From the NCBI GenBank assembly GCA_043812655.1, contig JBDRLW010000003.1, positions 21,125-85,124 of the forward strand: 64,000 bases of DNA, written 5' to 3'. The first letter of the stretch is position 1. The number at the start of each line of letters is the position of its first letter. The notes below the pieces were generated by a model. That model did no database searches. It saw nothing but the letters and a program-made list of their open reading frames with translations, and had not been told where the DNA came from. The position numbers were made by a program, and so were the translations under genes. This document shows positions 25,654 to 63,851 of the stretch, piece by piece. Origin of the DNA: a bacterium (GTDB taxonomy: Bacteria; Margulisbacteria; WOR-1; O2-12-FULL-45-9; XYB2-FULL-48-7).

Positions 25654-26052
25654 TTAAGAACTGCGAGTCATGCCATCCTTGCGAACTCTAGATGTAAAAG
25701 CTTTGAGTTGGCGGAAAATGTTTTCCGCTTTACTTAAGTACAATTTATGGTCAGCATCAATAATGTATCCATCGTCCAATGCCGCGTCCAAACAAGCCAC
25801 CACTTCACCAACCGAAGTTAAAGCTGTATTGAGAAATCTGCTAAAATCAACATCCGAATATCTTTCCGATCCTTCGGCAATATTTAGTAGGATTGAGTCC
25901 ATGGCTCGCCATAATTGTGAAGTTAAACAATATTGTTCTTCTTTAGGGAATTTTTTCTTGCTTAATTGTTTTAATCCAACCCTAAATTCGCGAGCATCTT
26001 TGTATACCGGAAACTCTCTAAATCTAAATACGCTTATTGTTTTTTCGTTCAT
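25654..26052 (-). CDS. four-helix-bundle protein (23S rRNA intervening-sequence protein family, PF05635/TIGR02436-like)
   Basis: 'FPKEEQYCLTSQLWRAMDSILLNIAEGSERYS' matches the conserved family core (FPKEE...L.SQ.RRAa.Si..NIAEG). Confidence 0.7.
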   Translation of the reverse strand: MNEKTISVFRFREFPVYKDAREFRVGLKQLSKKKFPKEEQYCLTSQLWRAMDSILLNIAEGSERYSDVDFSRFLNTALTSVGEVVACLDAALDDGYIIDADHKLYLSKAENIFRQLKAFTSRVRKDGMTRSS

Positions 26053-26067
26053 AAGTTCATAAGTTTA

Positions 26068-26736
26068 TCAGTTTATAAGTTCTTCAGTCTTTCCGTTCTT
26101 CATGATAAAATCAATTACCCGACCAAACGAATCATCAATGAACCGTTGGTCACGGTAAGTTATTAGTTGCTTTAGCTCTGGCTGATAAACATCTTTTATG
26201 AGTTGGCAACGCTCAAGCAATATTGGCAATTTCCCCTTAAAAACATCTAAATTCGCGATAAGCTTCTCCCTATCTTCATCTATCACTACTGCCAGGTCAA
26301 AAATATCCCGGCTTTTAAACTGTTCCGCCCGATAAAATATTTTTTTGACTATTATCTCCGGCGGGGTTTCAATGTTGATTTGATAACGTCCAACCTTCAT
26401 CTTTCCAATTGGCTCCTTGGTCAAATAAGGAGCGGCAATAAAATCAATAAAAACATCACCCTTTAACTTTATTTTGAGATAATTAGATTGTTCTTCCGCT
26501 CCAGCATAATCCTTGTCGCTTTCCACATGATCATTTAAACGTGGCGATAAACACGTTAAATATTGTACGTCGGTCAAAAAAATGTCTATGTCCTTACTGT
26601 AGCGGTGATGATAATAGGACATCAACGCCGTCCCTCCGCCAAACGACCATTTATTGACCGGTATTTGTGCTGATTCCAGGTAAGCAATAGCTTTCAATAA
26701 AATTTTTTCCCACTTTTCAGTTCTATTATTTAGCAT
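26068..26736 (-). CDS. nucleotidyltransferase, AbiEii/AbiGii toxin family (type IV TA toxin-like)
   Basis: 'WSFGGGTALMSYYHHRYSKDIDIFL' matches the AbiEii GGTAL...R.S.DID NTase core. Confidence 0.6.
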   Translation of the reverse strand: MLNNRTEKWEKILLKAIAYLESAQIPVNKWSFGGGTALMSYYHHRYSKDIDIFLTDVQYLTCLSPRLNDHVESDKDYAGAEEQSNYLKIKLKGDVFIDFIAAPYLTKEPIGKMKVGRYQINIETPPEIIVKKIFYRAEQFKSRDIFDLAVVIDEDREKLIANLDVFKGKLPILLERCQLIKDVYQPELKQLITYRDQRFIDDSFGRVIDFIMKNGKTEELIN

Positions 26737-27004
26737 ACTTGAAATACTCCTCGAACATAAGGTTGCGATAATATTTTCTCACGTTTTTTTTATAATAATT
26801 CAATGTTTGTAGCGCCGTCAACTTATGTTTCTTAATAAAACTCAGGATCGTGCTTAATGGTAATTCCGTAAAAAAAGCAAAGATATGGGCGTAATACTCG
26901 GCTTTCAATAAACCACTTCGAATGAGAGCGGCCGCCGTTTCCTCAGAAATCGGCTTTTTAACTGAAATATTGATAATGGAAAACAATGAATTATCTTTTT
27001 TCAT
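26726..27004 (-). CDS. small protein upstream of an AbiEii-like NTase; putative cognate antitoxin
   Basis: 92 aa, overlapping the NTase start. It shares a 'FIKKHKLTA'/'FAKKHGRQF' motif with the small ORF at 28692-28928. Confidence 0.3.
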   Translation of the reverse strand: MKKDNSLFSIINISVKKPISEETAAALIRSGLLKAEYYAHIFAFFTELPLSTILSFIKKHKLTALQTLNYYKKNVRKYYRNLMFEEYFKYAK

Positions 27005-27010
27005 TTTTTC

Positions 27011-27050
27011 AGTTCCTTCGTTCTTTGGTTCTTTAGTCCTTTGGTCTGTT
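27011..27050. repeat. right inverted repeat of the cassette (reverse complement of the AAGAAC-rich repeat)
   Basis: Its reverse complement 'gaacagaccaaaggactaaagaaccaaagaacgaaggaac' matches 25608-25650. Confidence 0.55.
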
Positions 27051-27161
27051 CTTCCTCTTCACCATTCATTATTCACGATTCACTTAATCCTTACCATGGC
27101 TCGACAGGCTCGCCATCCCAGCCATCCCGAGCTCAGTCGAGGGACTTACTACTTAATCTTT

Positions 27162-27995
27162 TTACTTCTTAATCACGCTATATAACGTCAAGCCAAGCAT
27201 GATCGTATTAACAAAGCCGGCAAAATCGGAAAAGTAAAAGAAATTCCCTGGGACATTAATCACATCGCCCCCTAGTATTTCCACATCATTTTTCGAGTCC
27301 CCATCATAAATGATCCTTGAGGCATTGATATATTTTTTATCAGGTTTTCCGTTTGCCTGCCTGGCAATTGTCACCGAGCCTAAAAGAGCCTTGGGGCTTG
27401 GCCCGCCGGCAAAGCTGATATAGTCAGACAACTTTTTACCTGGCAAATATTCAAACCGTCCAACCTTGTTCACTTCCCCATAAACGGAAACGTATTTTTT
27501 TTCGCCCATAAAAACCGGTTGGGCGCTATCCCCTGTCGCGTAGATATTAACCATTCTCGGTTGGATCAGCCGAAACGAAAAAACATATTTTTCCTTGTAC
27601 CCGCTTTTTATTTTTTTATCGATCGCTTTTTTGGCTTCAACAATAGAAAGTCCAAGCAGGTTGATCGCCCCAACTTTTGGGAAATAAATTGTCCCTCCCG
27701 GTTCAATCGTAAATATCTGATCGAGAGACATTTCATCTTCTCCAATGATCAGATTAGCAGAAACTATATCGCCAGGGCCAAGCTTATAGGTATTAACATC
27801 GATCGCGTCACCAACATAATCAGAAGTTACTGGCAAGCTAGAAGCTGGATTAGCCGCCGCATAAGCCCTTTTAACATCAGGAATTTGAAACCCCGAGTTT
27901 TTTAGATCATCCAAATTAACAGCAAAAATCGGAGAGCTCAATAAAATTATATTAATAACAAGAAAACTAGCTATATGCTTGATGATCTTTTTCAT
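27162..27995 (-). CDS. wza: polysaccharide export protein (Wza-like: Poly_export plus SLBB domains) with signal peptide
   Basis: N-terminal signal 'MKKIIKHIASFLVINIILLSSPIFA'. 'LGPGDIV' and 'IEPGGTIYFPKVG' are Poly_export/SLBB-like. Confidence 0.6.
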   Translation of the reverse strand: MKKIIKHIASFLVINIILLSSPIFAVNLDDLKNSGFQIPDVKRAYAAANPASSLPVTSDYVGDAIDVNTYKLGPGDIVSANLIIGEDEMSLDQIFTIEPGGTIYFPKVGAINLLGLSIVEAKKAIDKKIKSGYKEKYVFSFRLIQPRMVNIYATGDSAQPVFMGEKKYVSVYGEVNKVGRFEYLPGKKLSDYISFAGGPSPKALLGSVTIARQANGKPDKKYINASRIIYDGDSKNDVEILGGDVINVPGNFFYFSDFAGFVNTIMLGLTLYSVIKK

Positions 27996-28043
27996 AATCT
28001 CCCCCCCCCATTGATTTTATTTTACCAGATATTAGGCACATAT

Positions 28044-28688
28044 TTAGCCTGCCTCCTTGATCTTGTTGCGGAAAAAAGCGGCAATAGTCTTTGGTGCAGC
28101 CGGCTGTTCGCTTAGGTAACGAAGCTTTTCATCGACAACAATATCACCAGTAAATGCCAACTGCTCCAGGAACATCCGCTCGCTAAAGACCTCTCCATAT
28201 TTCTTTTTGGCTATATCAGTTATTTGATCAAGCGCGAGAAAATTATTTTTTACCATGACATAAAGATCAAAATAATCACGGTAATTACCGCGTCGGCCCA
28301 AAGCATATGCCTTGGTCGCCGCGATATCCTTGATCGATAATAACGGTAAATTTCCTGTTGTTTTCACCAATGGAAAAAGCGGTCGCCAATAATAATTCAA
28401 GAGCGTAATTTTAATATTGCCATCTAGAACTATTGTCAACTCATCAGCCGTATCGACTAGAGTGGTAAGATGATATTGGCGCAGTCCGCCCAGAAGTTTT
28501 CTTTTAACGGCAAAGGTAATATCCTTATCACGAAAAAGGTCGAAATCGAGTGACTCACGATGTCCTATCTGCAAAGCTAAAGCCGTACCACCGGCTAGAT
28601 AATAATCATGGCCTAATACTTTATTGAGCCTGGAAAAAACTGTCTTTCTTTCCGGATCAAGTATTTTCCAAAATAATTTTTTATTCAT
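28044..28688 (-). CDS. nucleotidyltransferase, AbiEii/AbiGii toxin family (second copy)
   Basis: 'YLAGGTALALQIGHRESLDFDLF' is the AbiEii NTase core motif. Confidence 0.6.
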   Translation of the reverse strand: MNKKLFWKILDPERKTVFSRLNKVLGHDYYLAGGTALALQIGHRESLDFDLFRDKDITFAVKRKLLGGLRQYHLTTLVDTADELTIVLDGNIKITLLNYYWRPLFPLVKTTGNLPLLSIKDIAATKAYALGRRGNYRDYFDLYVMVKNNFLALDQITDIAKKKYGEVFSERMFLEQLAFTGDIVVDEKLRYLSEQPAAPKTIAAFFRNKIKEAG

Positions 28689-30041: not shown

Positions 30042-30461
30042 TTACCCCATCTGTCCCGCCTTCGGCGGGACATCTTCCCCTTGGTAAGGGGAAGAATATA
30101 AGGAATTATCAATCTTATCTCGAATACTAGCAATCACTTGTTCAAGATTATTAAAAACCTCTTCATTTGTAAAACGAATGAAATTGATTTCTAAACATTC
30201 TATCAATTTCTGTCGTGCTTTATCATAATTGCGTTGATTTCTACTAAGATGATAACCACCATCAATTTCAATTCCCAACCTGACTTCTGGTGAATAAAAA
30301 TCAATCACAAAACCCTTAATGCTATATTGTCTTCGGAACTTATGCCCATTAACTTTTCGTTTTCTTATTTGTTCCCATAATATTTTCTCGGCTTCCGTCA
30401 TATTCTTACGCAGTATTTGTCTTTTTTCTCGATCACGACTTCTATTATATATCTTTGTCAT
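30042..30461 (-). CDS. DUF559 endonuclease-domain protein (Vsr/PD-(D/E)xK-like)
   Basis: 'LRKNMTEAEKILWEQIR', 'FRRQYSIKGFVIDFY', 'LGIEIDGGYH' and 'YDKARQKLIECLEINFIRF' are the conserved DUF559 blocks. The C-terminal tail reads through a flanking inverted repeat. Confidence 0.65.
   Translation of the reverse strand: MTKIYNRSRDREKRQILRKNMTEAEKILWEQIRKRKVNGHKFRRQYSIKGFVIDFYSPEVRLGIEIDGGYHLSRNQRNYDKARQKLIECLEINFIRFTNEEVFNNLEQVIASIRDKIDNSLYSSPYQGEDVPPKAGQMG
30073..30093. repeat. inverted repeat flanking the DUF559 gene (left copy), containing palindrome CCCCTTGGTAAGGGG
   Basis: 'cttccccttggtaaggggaag' read directly. Its partner 'ctcccccttaccaagggggag' lies at 30497-30517. Confidence 0.65.
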
Positions 30462-33764: not shown

Positions 33765-34890
33765 GTCTCGACTCACTTCGTTCGCTCGACATTAAACTTG
33801 CGAAGTCATTAAACAAGTAATGGGCATCATGCGGTCCTGGTCCCGCCTCCGGATGATATTGGACAGAAAAGATCGGTAAGGTTTTATGTTTCATCCCTTC
33901 AACTGTCTTATCATTTAAATTAATGTGGGTCAGCTCGACCGTTCCTTTGGGAATGGAATCGATATCAACAGCAAACCCATGGTTTTGGGCAGTGATAGCC
34001 ACTTTTCTCGTCTGCAAATCCATAACCGGTTGGTTGCCGCCATGATGGCCAAACTTTAATTTATAGGTCTTGCCGCCTAAAGCTAGCCCTAACAATTGGT
34101 GTCCCAAACAGATCCCAAAGATCGGTTTCTTCCCGATTAGTTGTTTAATATTTTTGATCGCGTAAGTCACCGCCGCTGGATCAGCTGGCCCGTTAGACAG
34201 GAATATCCCGTCTGGATTCATGGCCATGACTTTTTCCGCCGGAAAATCGGCGGGGACAACAGTGACTCGACAACCCGCCGCAACAAGATTATTTAGAATA
34301 CTAAACTTGATCCCATAATCATACGCCACCACATTAAATTCAGGCTTTCTACATTCATTGGTCATTGGAAATTGGTCATTGGTCATTTTCCACTCATGCG
34401 GCTCTTTACAAGTAACGGTCTTAACCAGATCAACCCCTTCAACTCCCTGACAATTTTTGGCTCTCCTTATCAAATGCCTTTCATTTAAATCAACTGTCGA
34501 GATTATTCCTTTCAAAGAACCCTTTGTCCGCAGCCGCCGAGTTAACATCCGGGTATCGATCCCTTCGATCCCCACGATCCCATATTTTTTAAGATAGTCG
34601 CCAAGCCCGCTGGTCGAGCGGAAATTTGAAGCTATCCTTGAATTTTCCCTGACAATAAAACCTTCGCATTGGGGGATGGTCGACTCCAGGTCTTCTTCAT
34701 TAACACCGTAATTGCCGATCAAGGGGTAAGTCATCGTTACGATCTGGCCTTTGTAGGAAGGATCGGTCAAGATTTCTTGATAACCAGAAAGAGAGGTATT
34801 GAAAACGATCTCCCCGCTCTTCTCACCCTCGGAGCCAAAAGAGCGACCATGAAAAACCGTCCCATCTTCTAAAGCTAAAACTGCTTTCAT
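33757..34890 (-). CDS. carA: carbamoyl-phosphate synthase small subunit (glutamine amidotransferase)
   Basis: '[19 protein letters not shown]' is the canonical CarA start, chosen over the longer track ORF. The GATase triad region 'GICLGHQLL' is present. The C-terminal residues run into the hairpin repeat. Confidence 0.85.
33764..33789. repeat. GC-rich hairpin repeat family 'GTCTCGACTCACTTCGTTCGCTCGAC' at the carA/carB junction
   Basis: Read directly. Related copies occur at 38584-38608 and, in reverse complement, within 63797-63838. Confidence 0.55.
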
Positions 34891-37094: not shown

Positions 37095-38066
37095 ATGGCA
37101 AAAATAAATAATAACAAACCAAAACTCCTCCTCGAAAAACCGCTGGAGGAGCTTTACGCTAAGATCGAAAAATTAAAAGTCCTTCAGGAATCCGGCAAAA
37201 TGGACATGACCGAGGAGATCAAAATGCTGGAGAAAAGGATCGAAAATACCCGTAAAGAAATATTCTCCAAGATTACGCCGATCCAATGCGTCCAAGTTGC
37301 CCGTTACATTATGAGACCGACTACGCTTGATTATATCGATCTGCTATTTAAAGACTTTGTTGAACTCCATGGCGATCGTAATTTTTCTGACGATCCAGCT
37401 TTAGTTACCGGGATCGCCAATCTCGATGGCCGCTCGGTCATTGTGATGGGCCACCAAAAAGGCCATTCAACCAAAGAAAATATTGCCCGCAATTTTGGGA
37501 TGGCAAATCCTGAAGGCTACCGCAAAGCCCTCCGGCTAATGCGCCTGGCCGAGCGTTACAACAAGCCGATCATTTCTTTTGTTGATACGCCGGGAGCATA
37601 TTGCGGTTTAGGCGCTGAAGAACGTGGCCAAGCCGAAGCGATCGCTAAAAACCTTCGGGAAATGGCAGAGCTGACTGTCCCCTTTATTTCCATTATTACT
37701 GGTGAGGGTGGCTCTGGAGGGGCGCTAGGAATAGCGATGGGAAATAAAGTTTTGATGCTTGAATATTCAATTTATTCGGTGATCTCCCCCGAAGGCTGCG
37801 CCTCGATCCTTTTCCGTGACGCATCACGCGCTAATGAAGCGGCTAATGCGATGAGGATCACCGCGCCAGACCTGCTTGAACTCGGGGTAATTGATGAAGT
37901 GATCAAAGAACCGATCGGCGGCGCGCACAACGATCCGGCCTTTATGGCCAAAAATATCAAGGCCGCCATTTTAAAACATCTAGAACCGCTTCTCTCCCTC
38001 TCTCACCGCGAGCTAATAGCCGACCGGTACAACAAATACCGGAAGATGGGAATTTTTAACGGATAA
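37095..38066 (+). CDS. accA: acetyl-CoA carboxylase carboxyltransferase subunit alpha
   Basis: 'ARHPQRP'-like 'VARYIMRPTTLDYI', 'DTPGAYCGLGAEERGQAEAIA' and 'GEGGSGGALG' are canonical AccA motifs. Confidence 0.9.
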   Translation: MAKINNNKPKLLLEKPLEELYAKIEKLKVLQESGKMDMTEEIKMLEKRIENTRKEIFSKITPIQCVQVARYIMRPTTLDYIDLLFKDFVELHGDRNFSDDPALVTGIANLDGRSVIVMGHQKGHSTKENIARNFGMANPEGYRKALRLMRLAERYNKPIISFVDTPGAYCGLGAEERGQAEAIAKNLREMAELTVPFISIITGEGGSGGALGIAMGNKVLMLEYSIYSVISPEGCASILFRDASRANEAANAMRITAPDLLELGVIDEVIKEPIGGAHNDPAFMAKNIKAAILKHLEPLLSLSHRELIADRYNKYRKMGIFNG

Positions 38067-38080
38067 ATATTTGGTAAATG

Positions 38081-38260
38081 CCGCGGAGAGGAATTGAACC
38101 TCCATGGGTTTAACCCCGCTAGCTCCTGAAGTCCCGCTTCATTAATATTTTATCATAATGACTTGCGGGATCCCGACGATTACATTATTATCATATCTTA
38201 ATGACCGTCGGGACTAGTGCGCCCGCCTTCGGCGGGTAAATCTGCCAGATAATAAACTTG
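38081..38260 (-). pseudogene. 5'-truncated tRNA-Leu-like pseudogene carrying two short hairpin insertions
   Basis: Minus strand reads TGGCAGA, then insert tttacccgccgaaggcggg, then CGCACTAG, then an 88-nt insert with the tcccgacg...cgtcgggatccc hairpin, then CTTCAGGAGCTAGCGGGGTTAAACCCATGGAGGTTCAATTCCTCTCCGCGGCA. Confidence 0.5.
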
Positions 38261-38270
38261 CTTCTTCAAA

Positions 38271-38354
38271 TGCCCAGGAGAGGAATTGAACCTCCATGGG
38301 TTTAACCCCGCTAGCTCCTGAAGCTAGTGCGTCTGCCAGTTCCGCCACCTGGGC
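38271..38354 (-). tRNA. tRNA-Leu (anticodon CAG)
   Basis: The reverse complement folds as a class II tRNA. Acceptor GCCCAGG/CCTGGGC, anticodon loop TTCAGGA, long variable arm, T-loop TTCAATT. Confidence 0.85.
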
Positions 38355-38424
38355 ATTTGAAGGTGGAAATATTCTCTCATAAATTGACTGCTGATTCAAG
38401 ATATTTTTCTGAAAAAAAAGGAGA

Positions 38425-38486
38425 TAGTTCCGCTTTACCCGCCACAGGTGGGTTTACCCGCCGCAGGCGGGCATAGCGGCATAAAA
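38425..38486. repeat. duplicated tRNA-Leu 5' end (GCCGCTATG) followed by hairpin element CCCGCC-N-GGCGGG-TAAA
   Basis: Minus-strand read: TGCCGCTATG, then cccgcctgcggcgggtaaa, then cccacctgtggcgggtaaagcgg. Confidence 0.45.
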
Positions 38487-38571
38487 TGCCGCTGGCCGGA
38501 GTTGAACCGGCACGGGGGTTAACCCCACTTGATTTTGAGTCAAGCGCGTCTGCCAATTCCACCACAGCGGC
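38487..38571 (-). tRNA. tRNA-Leu (anticodon CAA)
   Basis: The reverse complement is GCCGCTGTGGTGGAATTGGCAGACGCGCTTGACTCAAAATCAAGTGGGGTTAACCCCCGTGCCGGTTCAACTCCGGCCAGCGGCA. The anticodon loop CTCAAAA gives CAA. Confidence 0.85.
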
Positions 38572-38700
38572 ATTTCGACTCCGTCTCGACTCACTGCGTT
38601 CGCTCGACGTCGCTCAATGCCGAGAGAAGCCGAGACATTCCACTTTACCCGCCTGCCTACCGGCAGGCAAGCCGTAGGCGGGCACAGCGGCACGACAACT
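38572..38700. repeat. composite repeat upstream of tRNA-Leu(CAA): CTCGAC-family hairpin plus duplicated tRNA 5' end interrupted by palindromic hairpin CCCGCCTACGGCTTGCCTGCCGGTAGGCAGGCGGG-TAAA
   Basis: Minus-strand read: TGCCGCTGTG, then cccgcctacggcttgcctgccggtaggcaggcgggtaaa, then GTGGAAT, then gtctcg...cgagac, then the intact tRNA. The same palindrome in opposite orientation is at 44720-44760. Confidence 0.5.
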
Positions 38701-38855
38701 ATGGTGAGTATAGCAAAATAATTAAAGCTTGACAATAAACTATCTTATAATGTATTATAAAGATGTCCCAATAAACGACCACATTTTACAATTTTTTCTT
38801 AATGACAACAAAATTAACAATTTCTCAATCAAACAAAAACAAGTTTATCTAACCT

Positions 38856-38942: not shown

Positions 38943-40187
38943 ATGGATATTGTAGAGTTAGAAGGTAAGACCCTGCCCCAATTATACGAGGTCGCCAAAG
39001 GTTTGAACATTGCCAACCTGCGGCAATTAAAAAAGCACGACCTGGTTTTTAAGATCCTCGAAGCCCAGACCGAAAAGAACGGCCACATTTTCACCAAAGG
39101 GATCCTAGAGATCCTGCCCGAAAATTATGGTTTCTTGCGGACCGGCGGCTATCTCCCCAGCCGGGAAGACGTTTATGTTTCGCAAACCCAGATCCGCCGC
39201 TTTGATATGCAAAACGGTGATTTTGTCACCGGCCAGGTCCGGCCGCCTAAAGAGGGCGAAAAATATTATAGTTTGCTGAAGATCGAAGCGATCAACGGCG
39301 AAAATCCGGAAGGGGCGAGACAGCGCATACCATTTGACAGCTTAACACCAATTTTCCCCAACCGCCGCTTTGGTTTGGAATTTCCCGGTTGCCCCATGGC
39401 TTGCCGGTTGATTGACATGGTCGCGCCGATCGGCGCCGGCCAAAGAGCAATGATCGTCTCGCCGCCAAAGGCCGGTAAAACCACGGTCTTGAAAAATATC
39501 GCTAACTCGATCACTGAAAATTTCCCTGAAACCCTGATCAAAGTCTTACTGGTTGATGAACGGCCGGAAGAAGTGACCGATATGCAAAGGTCAGTTAAAG
39601 GCGAAGTCGTTGCTTCAACTTTTGATGAGCCGCCGGAGGACCACATTAGGATCGCCGAATTATTACTGGAAGCTTGCAAACGCTTAGTTGAAGCAGGCAA
39701 AGATGTCGTAATCCTCCTTGATTCGATCACCCGCTTAGCTCGGGCTTACAATTTAGTTACCCCACCCTCCGGCCGGACGCTGTCCGGCGGTCTTGACCCG
39801 ACTTGTCTCCACCGGCCAAAGCGCTTCTTCGGCGGCGCGCGGAATATTGAAGAAGGCGGCAGTTTAACGATCATCGCTACTGCTCTAGTTGAAACCGGCT
39901 CCAGGATGGACGATATTATTTATGAAGAGTTCAAAGGAACAGGTAATATGGAACTCCACCTCAACCGTAAGCTGGCTGACCGGAGAATTTTCCCAGCGAT
40001 CGACGTGCGGCTCTCCGGCACCAGGCGCGAAGAGCTCCTAATGGACGATAAGGAACTGAAAAAGATGTGGCTCTTGCGCAAAGTGATGGACAATTACGAG
40101 GCGGTTGAAGCGACCGAACAATTAATTGAACGGCTCAAAACCTTTAAGACTAATAAGCAGTTCTTTGATTCGGCTGATGTAAAGTAA
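38943..40187 (+). CDS. rho: transcription termination factor Rho
   Basis: N-terminal '[18 protein letters not shown]' Rho-N. Walker A '[18 protein letters not shown]'. 'Q-loop/R-loop' regions. Length 414 aa. Confidence 0.9.
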
Positions 40188-44709: not shown

Positions 44710-44774
44710 GCCGCGGTGGCCCGCCTACGGCTTGCCTGCCGGTAGGCAGGCGGGTAAATGGAACTGGCTGGCAC
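44710..44774 (+). pseudogene. tRNA-Leu 5' fragment (GCCGCGGTGG...GAACTGGCTGGCAC) interrupted in the D-arm by palindromic hairpin element
   Basis: GCCGCGGTGG, then cccgcctacggcttgcctgccggtaggcaggcgggtaaatg, then GAACTGGCTGGCAC. The acceptor 5' strand is complementary to the ...CCGCGGCA end at 45013. Confidence 0.45.
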
Positions 44775-44803
44775 TTACATCCCGAAGTTGAATGCAATTT
44801 TTT

Positions 44804-44887
44804 GCCGAGGTGGTGGAACTGGCAGACACACCAGCTTGAGGGGCTGGCGCCGTTAAAAGCGTAGGAGTTCAAATCTCCTCCTCGGCA
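44804..44887 (+). tRNA. tRNA-Leu (anticodon GAG)
   Basis: GCCGAGGTGGTGGAACTGGCAGACACACCAGCTTGAGGGGCTGGCGCCGTTAAAAGCGTAGGAGTTCAAATCTCCTCCTCGGCA. Class II cloverleaf with anticodon loop TTGAGGG. Confidence 0.85.
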
Positions 44888-44913
44888 TAAAAATTGCTTT
44901 CAAATTCAGAGAT

Positions 44914-45013
44914 GGAGGTTCTCCCGACGGACATTATAATAGAATAATGATGAAATCGTCGGGATCCCGATTTCCGCCAAAGGCGGAACATCGGGAAAGT
45001 CCTCTCCGCGGCA
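44914..45013 (+). pseudogene. tRNA-Leu 3' fragment (T-arm plus acceptor, GGAGGTTC...CCTCTCCGCGGCA) with a hairpin element inserted in the T-loop
   Basis: GGAGGTTC, then tcccgacggacattataatagaataatgatgaaatcgtcgggatccc-gatttccgccaaaggcggaacatcggga, then aagtCCTCTCCGCGGCA. The same 3' end sequence as the 38081 fragment. Confidence 0.45.
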
Positions 45014-63482: not shown

Positions 63483-63649
63483 GCGCGCTTAGTCCCGACG
63501 ATTCGACTTGCGTCGAATGTCGGGATCCCGATTTCCGCTGTAAGCGGAACATCGGGACTCAGCTGGTTAGAGTACTTGTCCCGATGGTCATTAGAATAGA
63601 TAGTAATGGAATCATCGGGATCCCGAGGCTGAAGCTACCATTATTGCGC
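63483..63649 (+). pseudogene. duplicated tRNA-Val 5' fragments (acceptor plus D-arm) interrupted by two 'TCCCGACG...CGTCGGGATCCC' hairpin elements
   Basis: GCGCGCTTAG, then insert 1, then TCAGCTGGTTAGAGTACTTG, then insert 2 (63579-63645), then the intact tRNA-Val. Confidence 0.45.
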
Positions 63650-63723
63650 GCGCGCTTAGCTCAGCTGGTTAGAGTACTTGCTTGACAGGCAAGGGGTCAC
63701 AGGTTCGAAACCTGTAGCGCGCA
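63650..63723 (+). tRNA. tRNA-Val (anticodon GAC)
   Basis: GCGCGCTTAGCTCAGCTGGTTAGAGTACTTGCTTGACAGGCAAGGGGTCACAGGTTCGAAACCTGTAGCGCGCA. Anticodon loop TTGACAG. Confidence 0.85.
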
Positions 63724-63745
63724 ATAATGGATTAGTTTACTCGGG

Positions 63746-63851
63746 ACTTGACAGGTGCCTTGACTTAGCTCGGCACAGGCAAGGGGTCACAGGTTCGCCT
63801 GCCCCGAGCGAGGAACGAAGTGACGAGTCGAGGGGAAACCTGTAGCGCGCA
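63746..63851 (+). pseudogene. tRNA-Val 3' fragment copy (anticodon loop to acceptor) with insertions in the anticodon loop and T-loop
   Basis: CTTGACAGG, then tgccttgacttagctcggca, then CAGGCAAGGGGTCACAGGTTCG, then cctgccccgagcgaggaacgaagtgacgagtcgagggg, then AAACCTGTAGCGCGCA. The T-loop insert is the reverse complement of the CTCGAC-family repeat. Confidence 0.45.

Follow-up and report, generated by a model that had tools for sequence, protein, structure and literature searches.

Hairpin-interrupted tRNA gene copies in a Margulisbacteria contig as probable relics of tRNA gene replacement

In a stretch of 64,000 nt of contig JBDRLW010000003.1 (positions 21,125 to 85,124; hereafter the window, by which we mean this whole stretch), from a bacterium of the WOR-1 lineage of Margulisbacteria, three loci contain intact tRNA genes flanked by, or nested in, pieces of further tRNA gene copies, and these pieces are interrupted by short palindromic hairpins inserted flush with the tRNA sequence. 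We consider it probable, with reservations given below, that such loci are what the replacement of tRNA genes has left behind in the DNA, with palindromic mobile elements that target tRNA sequence superimposed on it. The interrupted copies read as pseudogenes and not as intron-bearing genes, because excision of the insert seldom gives back a tRNA and, where it does, nearly always does so beside an intact gene with the same anticodon. In relatives of this bacterium, a small gene for a GIY-YIG nuclease accompanies loci of the same kind.

Three tRNA loci of the window

ARAGORN called six tRNA genes in the window, all of them confirmed by Rfam, whose scan of the window at gathering threshold returned these six tRNAs and nothing further. 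Interrupted copies were found at three loci (Table 1). The first of them, a cluster on the minus strand (38079-38691) with accA on one side (ending at 38066) and rho on the other (starting at 38943), is made up of intact tRNA-Leu(CAA) and tRNA-Leu(CAG) genes and of three tRNA-Leu fragments, here called alpha, beta and gamma, with flush hairpin inserts. A first-pass annotation of positions 38081-38700 had recognized both intact genes, which ARAGORN and Rfam also call. It had likewise noticed a third tRNA-Leu-like sequence with two insertions downstream of tRNA-Leu(CAG), which is our fragment gamma, as well as duplicates of the gene start GCCGCT(A/G)TG on both sides of tRNA-Leu(CAA), which we found as the first pieces of alpha and beta, each followed by CCCGCC..GGCGGGTAAA hairpins. 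The element that it placed in the anticodon stem of gamma is indeed present at that location, as a double hairpin, but it measures 82 nt and not 88 nt. What had been taken for one long palindrome is not a simple one: this 39-nt composite consists of a 19-nt hairpin (CCCGCCTACGG^CGGGTAAA) with a separate 20-nt palindrome of the CCTGCC..GGCAGG type nested in its stem, and it occurs twice in the window in identical form, in fragment alpha and at the tRNA-Leu(GAG) locus.

When beta and gamma are joined, ARAGORN calls a tRNA-Leu(CAG) that differs from the intact gene at only six positions, all in the acceptor stem. Judging from this sequence, beta is the 5' end of an older tRNA-Leu gene and gamma its remainder, and, as the two join into a complete tRNA-Leu(CAG) around the intact gene, the latter sits inside the older copy. 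The leader (CTTCAAA) and trailer (TTTGAAG) of the intact tRNA-Leu(CAG) are complementary, lengthening its acceptor helix.

The same insertion elements recur, as had been stated in the first-pass annotation, at the other two loci, those of tRNA-Leu(GAG) (44710-45013) and tRNA-Val(GAC) (63483-63851). At the former, the intact gene is flanked by 5' and 3' pieces of what seems to be an older tRNA-Leu, the first split by the 39-nt composite and the second carrying a double hairpin in its T-loop. The flanks of the intact gene hold a leader/trailer inverted repeat (GCAATTTTT and AAAAATTGC) and also a degenerate pair (TCCCGAAG.. and ..TTCAGAGA).

At the tRNA-Val(GAC) locus, an outer copy is divided by four inserts into five pieces, and every uninterrupted segment is at most 21 nt long. 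The joined pieces are identical to the inner gene at 74 of 74 positions and are called as tRNA-Val(GAC) by ARAGORN. That inner gene lies within one of the inserts, in the loop of the second of its two hairpins, together with a leader/trailer inverted repeat (CCATTAT and ATAATGG). The live genes at these loci have such self-pairing leaders and trailers, by which the acceptor helix is extended, whereas the clean tRNA genes of relatives do not show this pairing. In the Val and Leu(CAG) cases of the window, displaced and live copies have genome-specific variants in common, which points to gene conversion or recent copying.

Next to the tRNA loci of the window lie accA, rho and the genes for a deacetylase and a Mur ligase. 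When 10 open reading frames (ORFs) of the window, the three flanking the Leu(GAG) and Val loci among them, were scanned with Pfam, no domain of a transposase, of an integrase or of the GIY-YIG type came up.

Table 1. Features of the three tRNA loci of the window and of five loci of other bacteria sampled through the GIY-YIG protein. A slash between two tRNA positions marks an insertion point, here and in the text.
Feature	Position	Strand	Remarks
Promoter-like site	38707-38735	-	TTGTCA, 17 nt, TG-TATACT; 16 nt upstream of fragment alpha
Fragment alpha	38637-38691	-	Leu(CAA) positions 1-9 (GCCGCTGTG, 38683-38691) and about 10-16 (GTGGAAT, 38637-38643)
Insert of alpha	38644-38682		39-nt composite hairpin
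GAGCGA..GAGTCGAG-type element	38585-38615	-	in spacer between alpha and intact Leu(CAA)
Intact tRNA-Leu(CAA)	38486-38572	-	ARAGORN; Rfam, 54.7 bits
Fragment beta	38426-38480	-	GCCGCTATG (38472-38480) and GCGGAACT (38426-38433)
Inserts of beta	38453-38471, 38434-38452		two tandem 19-nt hairpins
Intact tRNA-Leu(CAG)	38270-38355	-	38264-38362 with leader and trailer; acceptor type GCCCAGG; ARAGORN, Rfam
Fragment gamma	38079-38248	-	putative older tRNA-Leu(CAG), D-loop to 3' end, acceptor type CCGCGGC; pieces CTGGCAGA (38241-38248), CGCACTAG (38214-38221) and remainder down to CCGCGGCA (38079-38131)
Insert 1 of gamma	38222-38240		19-nt hairpin TTTACCCGCCGAAGGCGGG
Insert 2 of gamma	38132-38213		82-nt TCCCG double hairpin, anticodon stem, 30/31
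5' piece of putative older tRNA-Leu	44710-44768	+	GCCGCGGTGG ^ TGGAACTGGC
Insert of 5' piece	44720-44758		39-nt composite hairpin
Intact tRNA-Leu(GAG)	44803-44888	+	ARAGORN
3' piece of putative older tRNA-Leu	44913-45013	+	TGGAGGTTC (44913-44921) and AAGTCCTCTCCGCGGCA (44997-45013)
Insert of 3' piece	44922-44996		75-nt TCCCG double hairpin, T-loop, 56/57
Outer tRNA-Val(GAC)	63483-63851	+	five pieces: 63483-63492, 63558-63578, 63747-63755, 63780-63797, 63836-63851
Val insert 1	63493-63557		65-nt double hairpin, 10/11
Val insert 2, with live gene	63579-63746	+	168 nt, 30/31; hairpin 1 63579-63620, hairpin 2 63621-63746 (stem TCCCGAG/CTCGGGA); fold z = -6.3
Intact tRNA-Val(GAC)	63650-63723		in loop of hairpin 2 of Val insert 2
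Val insert 3	63756-63779		24 nt
Val insert 4	63798-63835		38 nt, GAGCGA..GAGTCGAG type, in T-loop
Dehalococcoidia triad	L224 1437-1885		tRNA-Val, anticodon arm replaced by CCCCGAT..ATCGGGG
Elusimicrobia triad	L226 1441-1887		Pro(GGG)-type copy split around Pro(TGG)
Triad on a 1.7-Mb contig, affiliation not assigned	L227 1395-1809		tRNA-Ala
Patescibacteria triad	L245 1130-1740		CCCGCC..GGCGGG hairpin, GAGCGA/GAGTCGAG-like loop, 8/9
Groundwater contig triad	L246 1095-1519		tRNA-Glu, TCCCG double hairpin in D-loop

Hairpin families and their insertion points

The main insert is a double hairpin, in which TCCCGAYG..CRTCGGGA is directly followed by TCCCG..CGGGA. Its 8-bp terminal inverted repeats, TCCCGAYG and CRTCGGGA, covary between copies (C-G in some and T-A in others at position 7), and the second hairpin is often an inverted copy of the first one around the centre GGGA/TCCC. 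The inserts fold as two adjacent flush hairpins, with z-scores from -3.5 to -8.8. There is no target-site duplication, and removal of the inserts restores the exact tRNA sequence without extra bases (74/74 for Val). The insertion point is often the centre of a small palindrome, such as TTC/GAA or CAG/CTG. A smaller family is formed by the 19-nt CCCGCC..GGCGGGTAAA units, present in the Leu cluster as part of the composite of alpha and as the tandem pair of beta. These small inserts are located at 9/10 and 10/11, and one copy stands at 21/22 in the opposite orientation. The target GTG/GTGG suggested in the first-pass annotation holds for this small family and fails for the others.

Two further palindromes were noticed. 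In the GAGCGA..GAGTCGAG hairpins, a loop that is conserved (GAGCGAACGAAGTGAGTCGAG-like) stands on a stem that varies and covaries; they occur in the window at 33767-33787, at 38585-38615 and in the T-loop of the outer Val copy, and also in L152, L175 and L209. In relatives they often abut the 5' end of a tRNA, and the window copy at 33767-33787 lies outside any tRNA locus. The family had no Rfam match at gathering threshold. A perfect 20-nt palindrome, CCTGCCTGCCGGCAGGCAGG, is scattered over several genomes of the clade (L124 2528-2547, L120 2294-2313, L136 8836-8855 and L160 1377-1396), also outside tRNA loci, the copy in L124 being within a called GHMP-kinase gene.

In the window, all four TCCCG units and all five exact TTTACCCGCC hairpins fall in the three tRNA loci, which account for 2.3% of its length; if placements are assumed to be independent, the chance of finding all nine there is about 2e-15. 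Counts of the hairpin patterns were higher than in every shuffle. The profile of the first hairpin had no further match in the 64 kb, and the ordinary intergenic DNA of the window, which amounts to several kilobases, contained no TCCCG or CCCGCC..TAAA unit.

Outside the window, a scan of metagenomes with the motif of the first hairpin returned 98 stretches, from which 85 unique double hairpins were obtained after removal of duplicates. The TCCCG double hairpin is a family spread over Margulisbacteria and Saganbacteria, and at least 65 of the 85 unique elements are in tRNA-like sequence, the criterion being that 15 nt or more across the junction match a tRNA. The view of the first-pass annotation that these are small, non-autonomous and tRNA-biased repeats is thus sustained both in the window and across the clade. 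The commonest insertion point is between C56 and R57 in the T-loop (56/57, 34 cases); another 13 insertions are in the D-loop at 15/16, and the remainder of the 65 are at 10/11, at 18-26 and in the anticodon arm, including 30/31. Several of the other 20 elements are still half tRNA, and about 15-24% of the elements are in non-tRNA sequence. In a looser pattern scan of genome contigs, about 25 of 119 loci were genuine elements, the others being mostly chance matches in high-GC coding DNA. Related double hairpins with the same TCCCGAYG ends were also found in tRNA sequence of Patescibacteria, of Omnitrophota and of a metagenome-assembled genome labelled Planctomycetales. Scans of viral contigs for the TCCCG element and for the composite hairpin gave chance matches in coding sequence only, so that no phage origin is indicated.

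Some copies have peculiar arrangements. In a Buchananbacteria locus (L029 2120-2620), within tandem units, the double hairpin interrupts tRNA-Cys inside the anticodon, between bases 34 and 35, and 3' and 5' pieces of this tRNA alternate around the element, ahead of a single intact gene. In L221 (1-235), an otherwise intact tRNA-Pro(GGG) has three inserts, one in the D-loop (15/16) and two at mirror positions of the anticodon stem (30/31 and 39/40). The anticodon arm of tRNA-Pro(GGG), TCCCGATGGGATCGGGA (TCCCG-ATGGGAT-CGGGA), is itself a TCCCGAT..ATCGGGA palindrome (L226 1468-1484 and 1842-1858; L065 2395-2411); the ends of the element may derive from this arm, or the arm may have been their first target.

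The bias toward tRNA could be only apparent if generic palindromes, similar to repetitive extragenic palindromic (REP) sequences or to transposable elements of the miniature inverted-repeat kind (MITEs), insert at random and dispensable tRNA duplicates are among the few tolerant sites of a compact genome. Such a scenario would account for the elements found in non-tRNA sequence and for the copies of the 20-nt palindrome and of the GAGCGA..GAGTCGAG hairpin found elsewhere, and selection clearly removes insertions into live genes. Nevertheless, the insertion points coincide to the nucleotide across different tRNAs and genomes, as seen for 56/57 and 15/16, the intergenic DNA of the window is free of both kinds of unit, and tolerance does not explain why a redundant copy is present at about one-third of the sampled tRNA genes. 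We consider insertion without targeting improbable.

Status of the interrupted copies

Introns were what we first suspected. According to this explanation, the inserts would be introns of a new bacterial type, transcribed, with hairpins cut by a host endonuclease and exons then ligated, so that the interrupted copies would work. The inserts are flush with the exon ends and their excision gives exact tRNA sequence, the hairpin stems covary, and a number of interrupted copies retain their full length without apparent damage, such as the outer Lys of L205, the outer Val of the window and of L201, and the Pro(GGG) of L221; in the window, the exons of the outer Val are 100% identical to the inner gene. 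However, excision of the element restored a tRNA recognized by ARAGORN in only 11 of 95 copies, most of the interrupted copies being truncated, without an arm or the acceptor strand. Where a tRNA was restored, an intact gene with the same anticodon was present within 500 nt in all cases but one, which is at a contig edge. Orthologous outer copies have decayed differently, that of L184 having lost half of its T-arm and that of L120 showing a C72-to-A change. Moreover, the fold is one of two adjacent hairpins with no bulge-helix-bulge geometry, the inserts are too short for group I or group II introns, of which Rfam finds none, and the same elements occur outside tRNA sequence too. We rejected introns because few tRNAs are restored by excision and intact twins lie nearby, and the intron-like processing left open in the first-pass annotation now seems very unlikely.

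Traces of gene replacement

Fragments of themselves, on the same strand, were found in the flanks of 55 of the 170 unique intact tRNAs of the element-bearing loci of the clade, that is, about one-third of the sampled tRNA genes, and only two fragments were on the opposite strand. The fragments are polar: 5' parts are upstream in 22 cases and downstream in 13, whereas 3' parts are downstream in 33 and upstream in five (Fisher p=1e-5). We read the loci as scars of recombination or replacement, which is close to the earlier proposal of repeated integration or recombination scars. That the fragments are halves of an older gene flanking or enclosing the live one, that a live tRNA lies inside the Val insert and that relatives have a GIY-YIG gene are additions to what the first-pass annotation contained.

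Homologues of AccA assign the contig to Margulisbacteria/Saganbacteria (WOR-1); look-ups with rho and with two proteins encoded near the ends of the window retrieved no record. Related loci preserve what look like earlier states. In L122, the spacer between accA and rho is 208 nt long and holds two plain tRNA-Leu genes only, the CAG gene having the acceptor GCCGCGG, which is that of gamma; a clean gene of this ancestral type is present in L120 as well. Beside the intact gene, L120 also has a full-length interrupted CAG copy, whose inserts stand at the same two sites as inserts of the window, namely where the D-loop meets the D-stem and at 56/57 in the T-loop. The clean tRNA-Leu pair of L124, in turn, has the acceptor GCCCAGG found in the live CAG gene of the window. 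Displaced and live copies differ in their acceptor or T-stem alleles in the Leu loci of the window (acceptor GCCGCGG versus GCCCAGG) and likewise in L179, L126, L205 and L214, and no donor-recipient pair was found among these loci. In L214 and L200, the T-stems of the fragments are internally matched yet unlike those of the neighbouring gene. For this reason we discarded the explanation of a simple, site-specific T-loop crossover.

A live tRNA nested in a hairpin loop is a recurrent layout, observed for Val, Thr, Lys and Arg and also in a Patescibacteria locus (L035). The window belongs to a metagenome-assembled contig, and repeats and hairpins assemble poorly, so one might think of an artefact in which repeated tRNA sequences and palindromes were mis-joined. 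Yet the nested Val layout is present in at least five independent assemblies (L201, L184/L091, L126, L155 and L170), whose sequences are not the same and whose flanking helix has compensatory changes, the same layouts are found on dozens of independent contigs from different projects, and the junctions are exact to the nucleotide. We give the artefact next to no weight.

Fragments of tRNA genes could also be attachment-site scars, left by phages or genomic islands that were integrated by tyrosine integrases, brought replacement tRNA ends and were later deleted, the hairpins being unrelated REP-like repeats that gather in the spacer. Many of the 3' fragments begin in the T-loop, which is reportedly a known crossover region of integrases, and tRNA-Leu genes are often used as integration sites. 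Partial tRNA genes beside intact ones, which annotation tools can miscall, are the classic footprint of integrative elements (PMC9897764), and the tRNA pieces that adjoin intact genes in our loci resemble them in this respect. The differences are, however, considerable. Neither an integrase nor an island adjoins the three tRNA loci of the window, where the flanking genes are housekeeping ones. The fragments are merely 8-150 nt from the intact gene and are interrupted by hairpins, which stand at fixed positions inside the tRNA sequence and not in spacers. Both 5' fragments upstream and 3' fragments downstream are common, the two halves corresponding to one old gene around a new one, and a crossover in the T-loop would not give the internally matched T-stems of L214 and L200. 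We regard attachment-site scars as an unlikely origin of these loci.

A GIY-YIG nuclease gene beside tRNA genes of relatives

A small ORF beside the element in a Kerfeldbacteria locus encodes a protein with a GIY-YIG domain (PF01541). In the Margulisbacteria and Saganbacteria set there are 13 unique GIY-YIG ORFs homologous to it, with about 80 aa, made up of the catalytic domain only and devoid of a DNA-binding domain. Most of them end from -12 to +30 nt from an intact tRNA on the same strand (one is 111 nt off and another reads into the tRNA), and the tRNAs concerned are Pro, Arg, Asp, Ser, Tyr, Ala and Lys. The element-bearing displaced copy is upstream of the ORF and is often cut in or near the T-loop.

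Six loci were sampled through the protein itself, and five of them show a triad composed of a displaced 5' copy with a palindrome, a GIY-YIG ORF and an intact tRNA (Table 1). In three of the five, the anticodon arm of the displaced copy has been replaced by a perfect mini-hairpin, and the TCCCG double hairpin is present in L246. In the sixth locus, from Bacillales (L228 1501-1785), the GIY-YIG member lies between methyltransferase genes with no tRNA nearby, which indicates that the family is not always linked to tRNA. Downstream of the GIY-YIG ORF of the Patescibacteria locus (L245 1443-1740), a tRNA-Asp(GTC) without an ARAGORN call has an insert of about 230 nt after the anticodon, probably a group I intron of the kind recently described in Patescibacteria (PMC13011429).

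Discussion

If the loci are relics of tRNA gene replacement, an older gene for the same tRNA would once have occupied each of them. Within or beside this old gene, an intact newcomer would have been placed that had a mutually complementary leader and trailer of its own and in some cases another acceptor-stem allele. The old gene would thereby have been broken in two, its 5' piece now lying upstream and its 3' piece downstream. Displaced and dispensable, these pieces would then serve as landing pads for several tiny hairpin families (the TCCCG double hairpin, the 19-nt CCCGCC..GGCGGGTAAA unit, the 20-nt CCTGCC..GGCAGG palindrome and the GAGCGA..GAGTCGAG hairpin), inserted flush at conserved tRNA positions. 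No inserts were seen in live genes, where, as we propose, such insertions would be lethal.

Cleavage, homing and movement of the palindromes are steps that we infer, the first two by comparison with SegB of the T-even phages (T4/T6), a free-standing GIY-YIG endonuclease of a tRNA cluster whose cuts fall within tRNA genes (PMC2330249). The motif mapped for it, RAWTSGAAC, corresponds to the T-loop read on the other strand (GTTCSAWTY) (PMC13096335), and its activity drives the preferential inheritance and the duplication or amplification of the tRNA-plus-segB segment (PMC2330249, PMC13096335). The likeness lies in a GIY-YIG gene found among tRNA genes, which in the relatives abuts a tRNA and is accompanied by a displaced copy often cut at the T-loop; the loop that SegB targets is also where the palindromes are most often inserted and where the displaced copies are usually truncated. 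On the other hand, the genes described here are chromosomal and come from uncultured bacteria of several phyla, their small product has no DNA-binding domain, and each cassette consists of one nuclease gene, one tRNA and a palindrome-bearing displaced copy. By analogy, the nuclease would break tRNA genes at conserved loops, and recombinational repair would copy in the nuclease-plus-tRNA cassette. The palindromes may enter at the breaks, or may persist because they break up direct repeats whose homology would otherwise lead to loss of the cassette; the latter is only an idea, and in the outer Val of the window the uninterrupted segments are indeed short. The window would then hold nuclease-less scars only.

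Several observations count against gene replacement by such a route. No convincing ORF-bearing autonomous element bounded by TCCCG repeats was found in about 110 loci of limited sequence, which gave noise only, and TCCCG repeats do not enclose the GIY-YIG ORF itself. Neither a GIY-YIG gene nor a remnant of one turned up in the window by tblastn or in a six-frame profile (hidden Markov model) scan, and consequently the link to the nuclease for this genome comes from relatives only. In addition, the clade loci were chosen by the element, so the co-occurrence of element and nuclease in them is biased, and the independent sample is that of the six loci found through the protein. The outer Val is 100% identical to the inner gene although its layout is shared with diverged genomes, for which gene conversion or recent re-copying has to be assumed. 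Simple homing at the T-loop does not by itself yield the commonest layout, in which an intact tRNA is followed by a short spacer, a T-arm with the element and the 3' end. Finally, the tRNA-Pro(GGG) of L221, at a contig edge, has no uninterrupted copy in the 1.9 kb of sequence and is the strongest case that remains for introns.

A broader possibility, which we put forward tentatively and think less probable than replacement as such, is that of a widespread selfish system of uncultured bacteria. A minimal GIY-YIG gene welded to a tRNA gene would home into the resident copy, replace it and make the host dependent, while the TCCCG palindromes would be non-autonomous companions that mark or stabilize the displaced copy and are able to ferry whole tRNA genes in a hairpin loop. 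Alleles of tRNA genes would, in that case, turn over by homing and not by ordinary descent.

The TCCCG elements resemble REP sequences and the REPINs formed from them in being short non-autonomous palindromes, in that two inverted units form a larger hairpin and in their long persistence in a lineage. They differ in that the units start with TCCCGA and have no 5' motif of the GTAG type, in being inserted at fixed tRNA positions (at least 65 of 85) and not in extragenic space, and in that some copies hold a whole tRNA gene in the loop. REPINs are mobilized by RAYT (Y1) transposases, encoded by a single-copy gene with REPs on its flanks. Of the 10 ORFs of the window covered by the Pfam scan, none is such a gene, nor did we notice one close to the elements examined at other loci, the scans having covered part of the ORFs. 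Bacterial MITEs, such as the Correia, RUP and Nezha elements, are short sequences that encode nothing and end in inverted repeats. The double hairpins share with them the small size, the lack of coding sequence, terminal inverted repeats (here of 8 bp), high copy number and nesting, and may likewise bring promoter-like hexamers; unlike MITEs, they have no target-site duplication and no parent insertion sequence in the roughly 110 loci, and their targets are tRNA loops.

The host clade of the window is sister to the cyanobacteria, in which very small dispersed repeats have reportedly been described as hairpin units of 19-27 nt with flush insertion and nesting, also in conserved RNA genes. Specificity for tRNA positions and a link to duplicated tRNA genes are said not to be part of that description. 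The elements of both groups are thus alike as small, flush and nesting hairpins and differ in sequence.

Archaeal tRNA introns and split tRNAs are characterized by the bulge-helix-bulge motif, and the introns are found at non-canonical sites as well, among them the D- and T-arms. Group I introns in tRNA genes have a ribozyme core of about 200 nt or more and are inserted in the anticodon loop. Group I and, rarely, group II introns are the known interruptions of bacterial tRNA genes (PMC13011429). As with all of these, the tRNA genes described here are interrupted at defined positions. In contrast to group I and II introns, the inserts have 19-88 nt (168 nt with the tRNA inside), are unstructured in terms of either group and are found at 10/11, 15/16, 30/31 and 56/57; and, in contrast to archaeal introns, there are no 3-nt bulges around a 4-bp helix, and the interrupted copies are mostly truncated and nearly always redundant.

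Our literature search retrieved no account of bacterial tRNA genes with short hairpin inserts, or of a chromosomal cassette that unites a GIY-YIG gene with a tRNA, although its thin coverage of subscription journals makes this weak evidence; the phenomenon is probably, though not certainly, undescribed. Genes for tRNAs are usually held to be among the most stable parts of genomes, and yet in this clade about one in three of those sampled carries pieces of a predecessor, and a live tRNA can lie within a mobile hairpin by which its own ancestor is interrupted. Should the link to the nuclease hold, biology of the SegB type (T-loop cutting and the duplication and replacement of tRNA genes) would not be confined to phages but would reach the chromosomes of several phyla about which little is known, which would account for the sideways spread of tRNA alleles and would represent a natural system of short DNA hairpins with single-nucleotide precision of insertion. 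Such loci will in any case mislead tRNA annotation and pseudogene calls in metagenome-assembled genomes.

Transcription of the Leu cluster and other features

The promoter-like site upstream of fragment alpha (Table 1) is the sole good match of the sigma-70 type on the minus strand upstream of the Leu tRNAs and, going by its motifs, is likely to be the start of their transcription unit. The whole of 38079-38691 is probably a single transcript from this site, read from 38735 to 38707, from which RNase P and RNase Z would free only the two intact tRNAs. At 38707-38758, promoter-like sites are arranged back-to-back, with TTGACA-18-TATTAT on the plus strand toward rho and TTGTCA-17-TATACT on the minus strand toward the tRNAs, and their -35 boxes overlap.

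Elsewhere in the window, at 30042-30461, the 3' end of an ORF with a DUF559 domain (a Vsr-like endonuclease) overlaps a perfect hairpin, TGTCCCGCCTTCGGCGGGACA (30054-30070), which has the CCCGCC..GGCGGG core of the small hairpins of the tRNA loci without the TAAA tail. A further cluster (25654-28688) is composed of a homologue of the 23S rRNA intervening-sequence protein (25654-26052) and of two AbiEii toxin-like ORFs (26068-26736 and 28044-28688).

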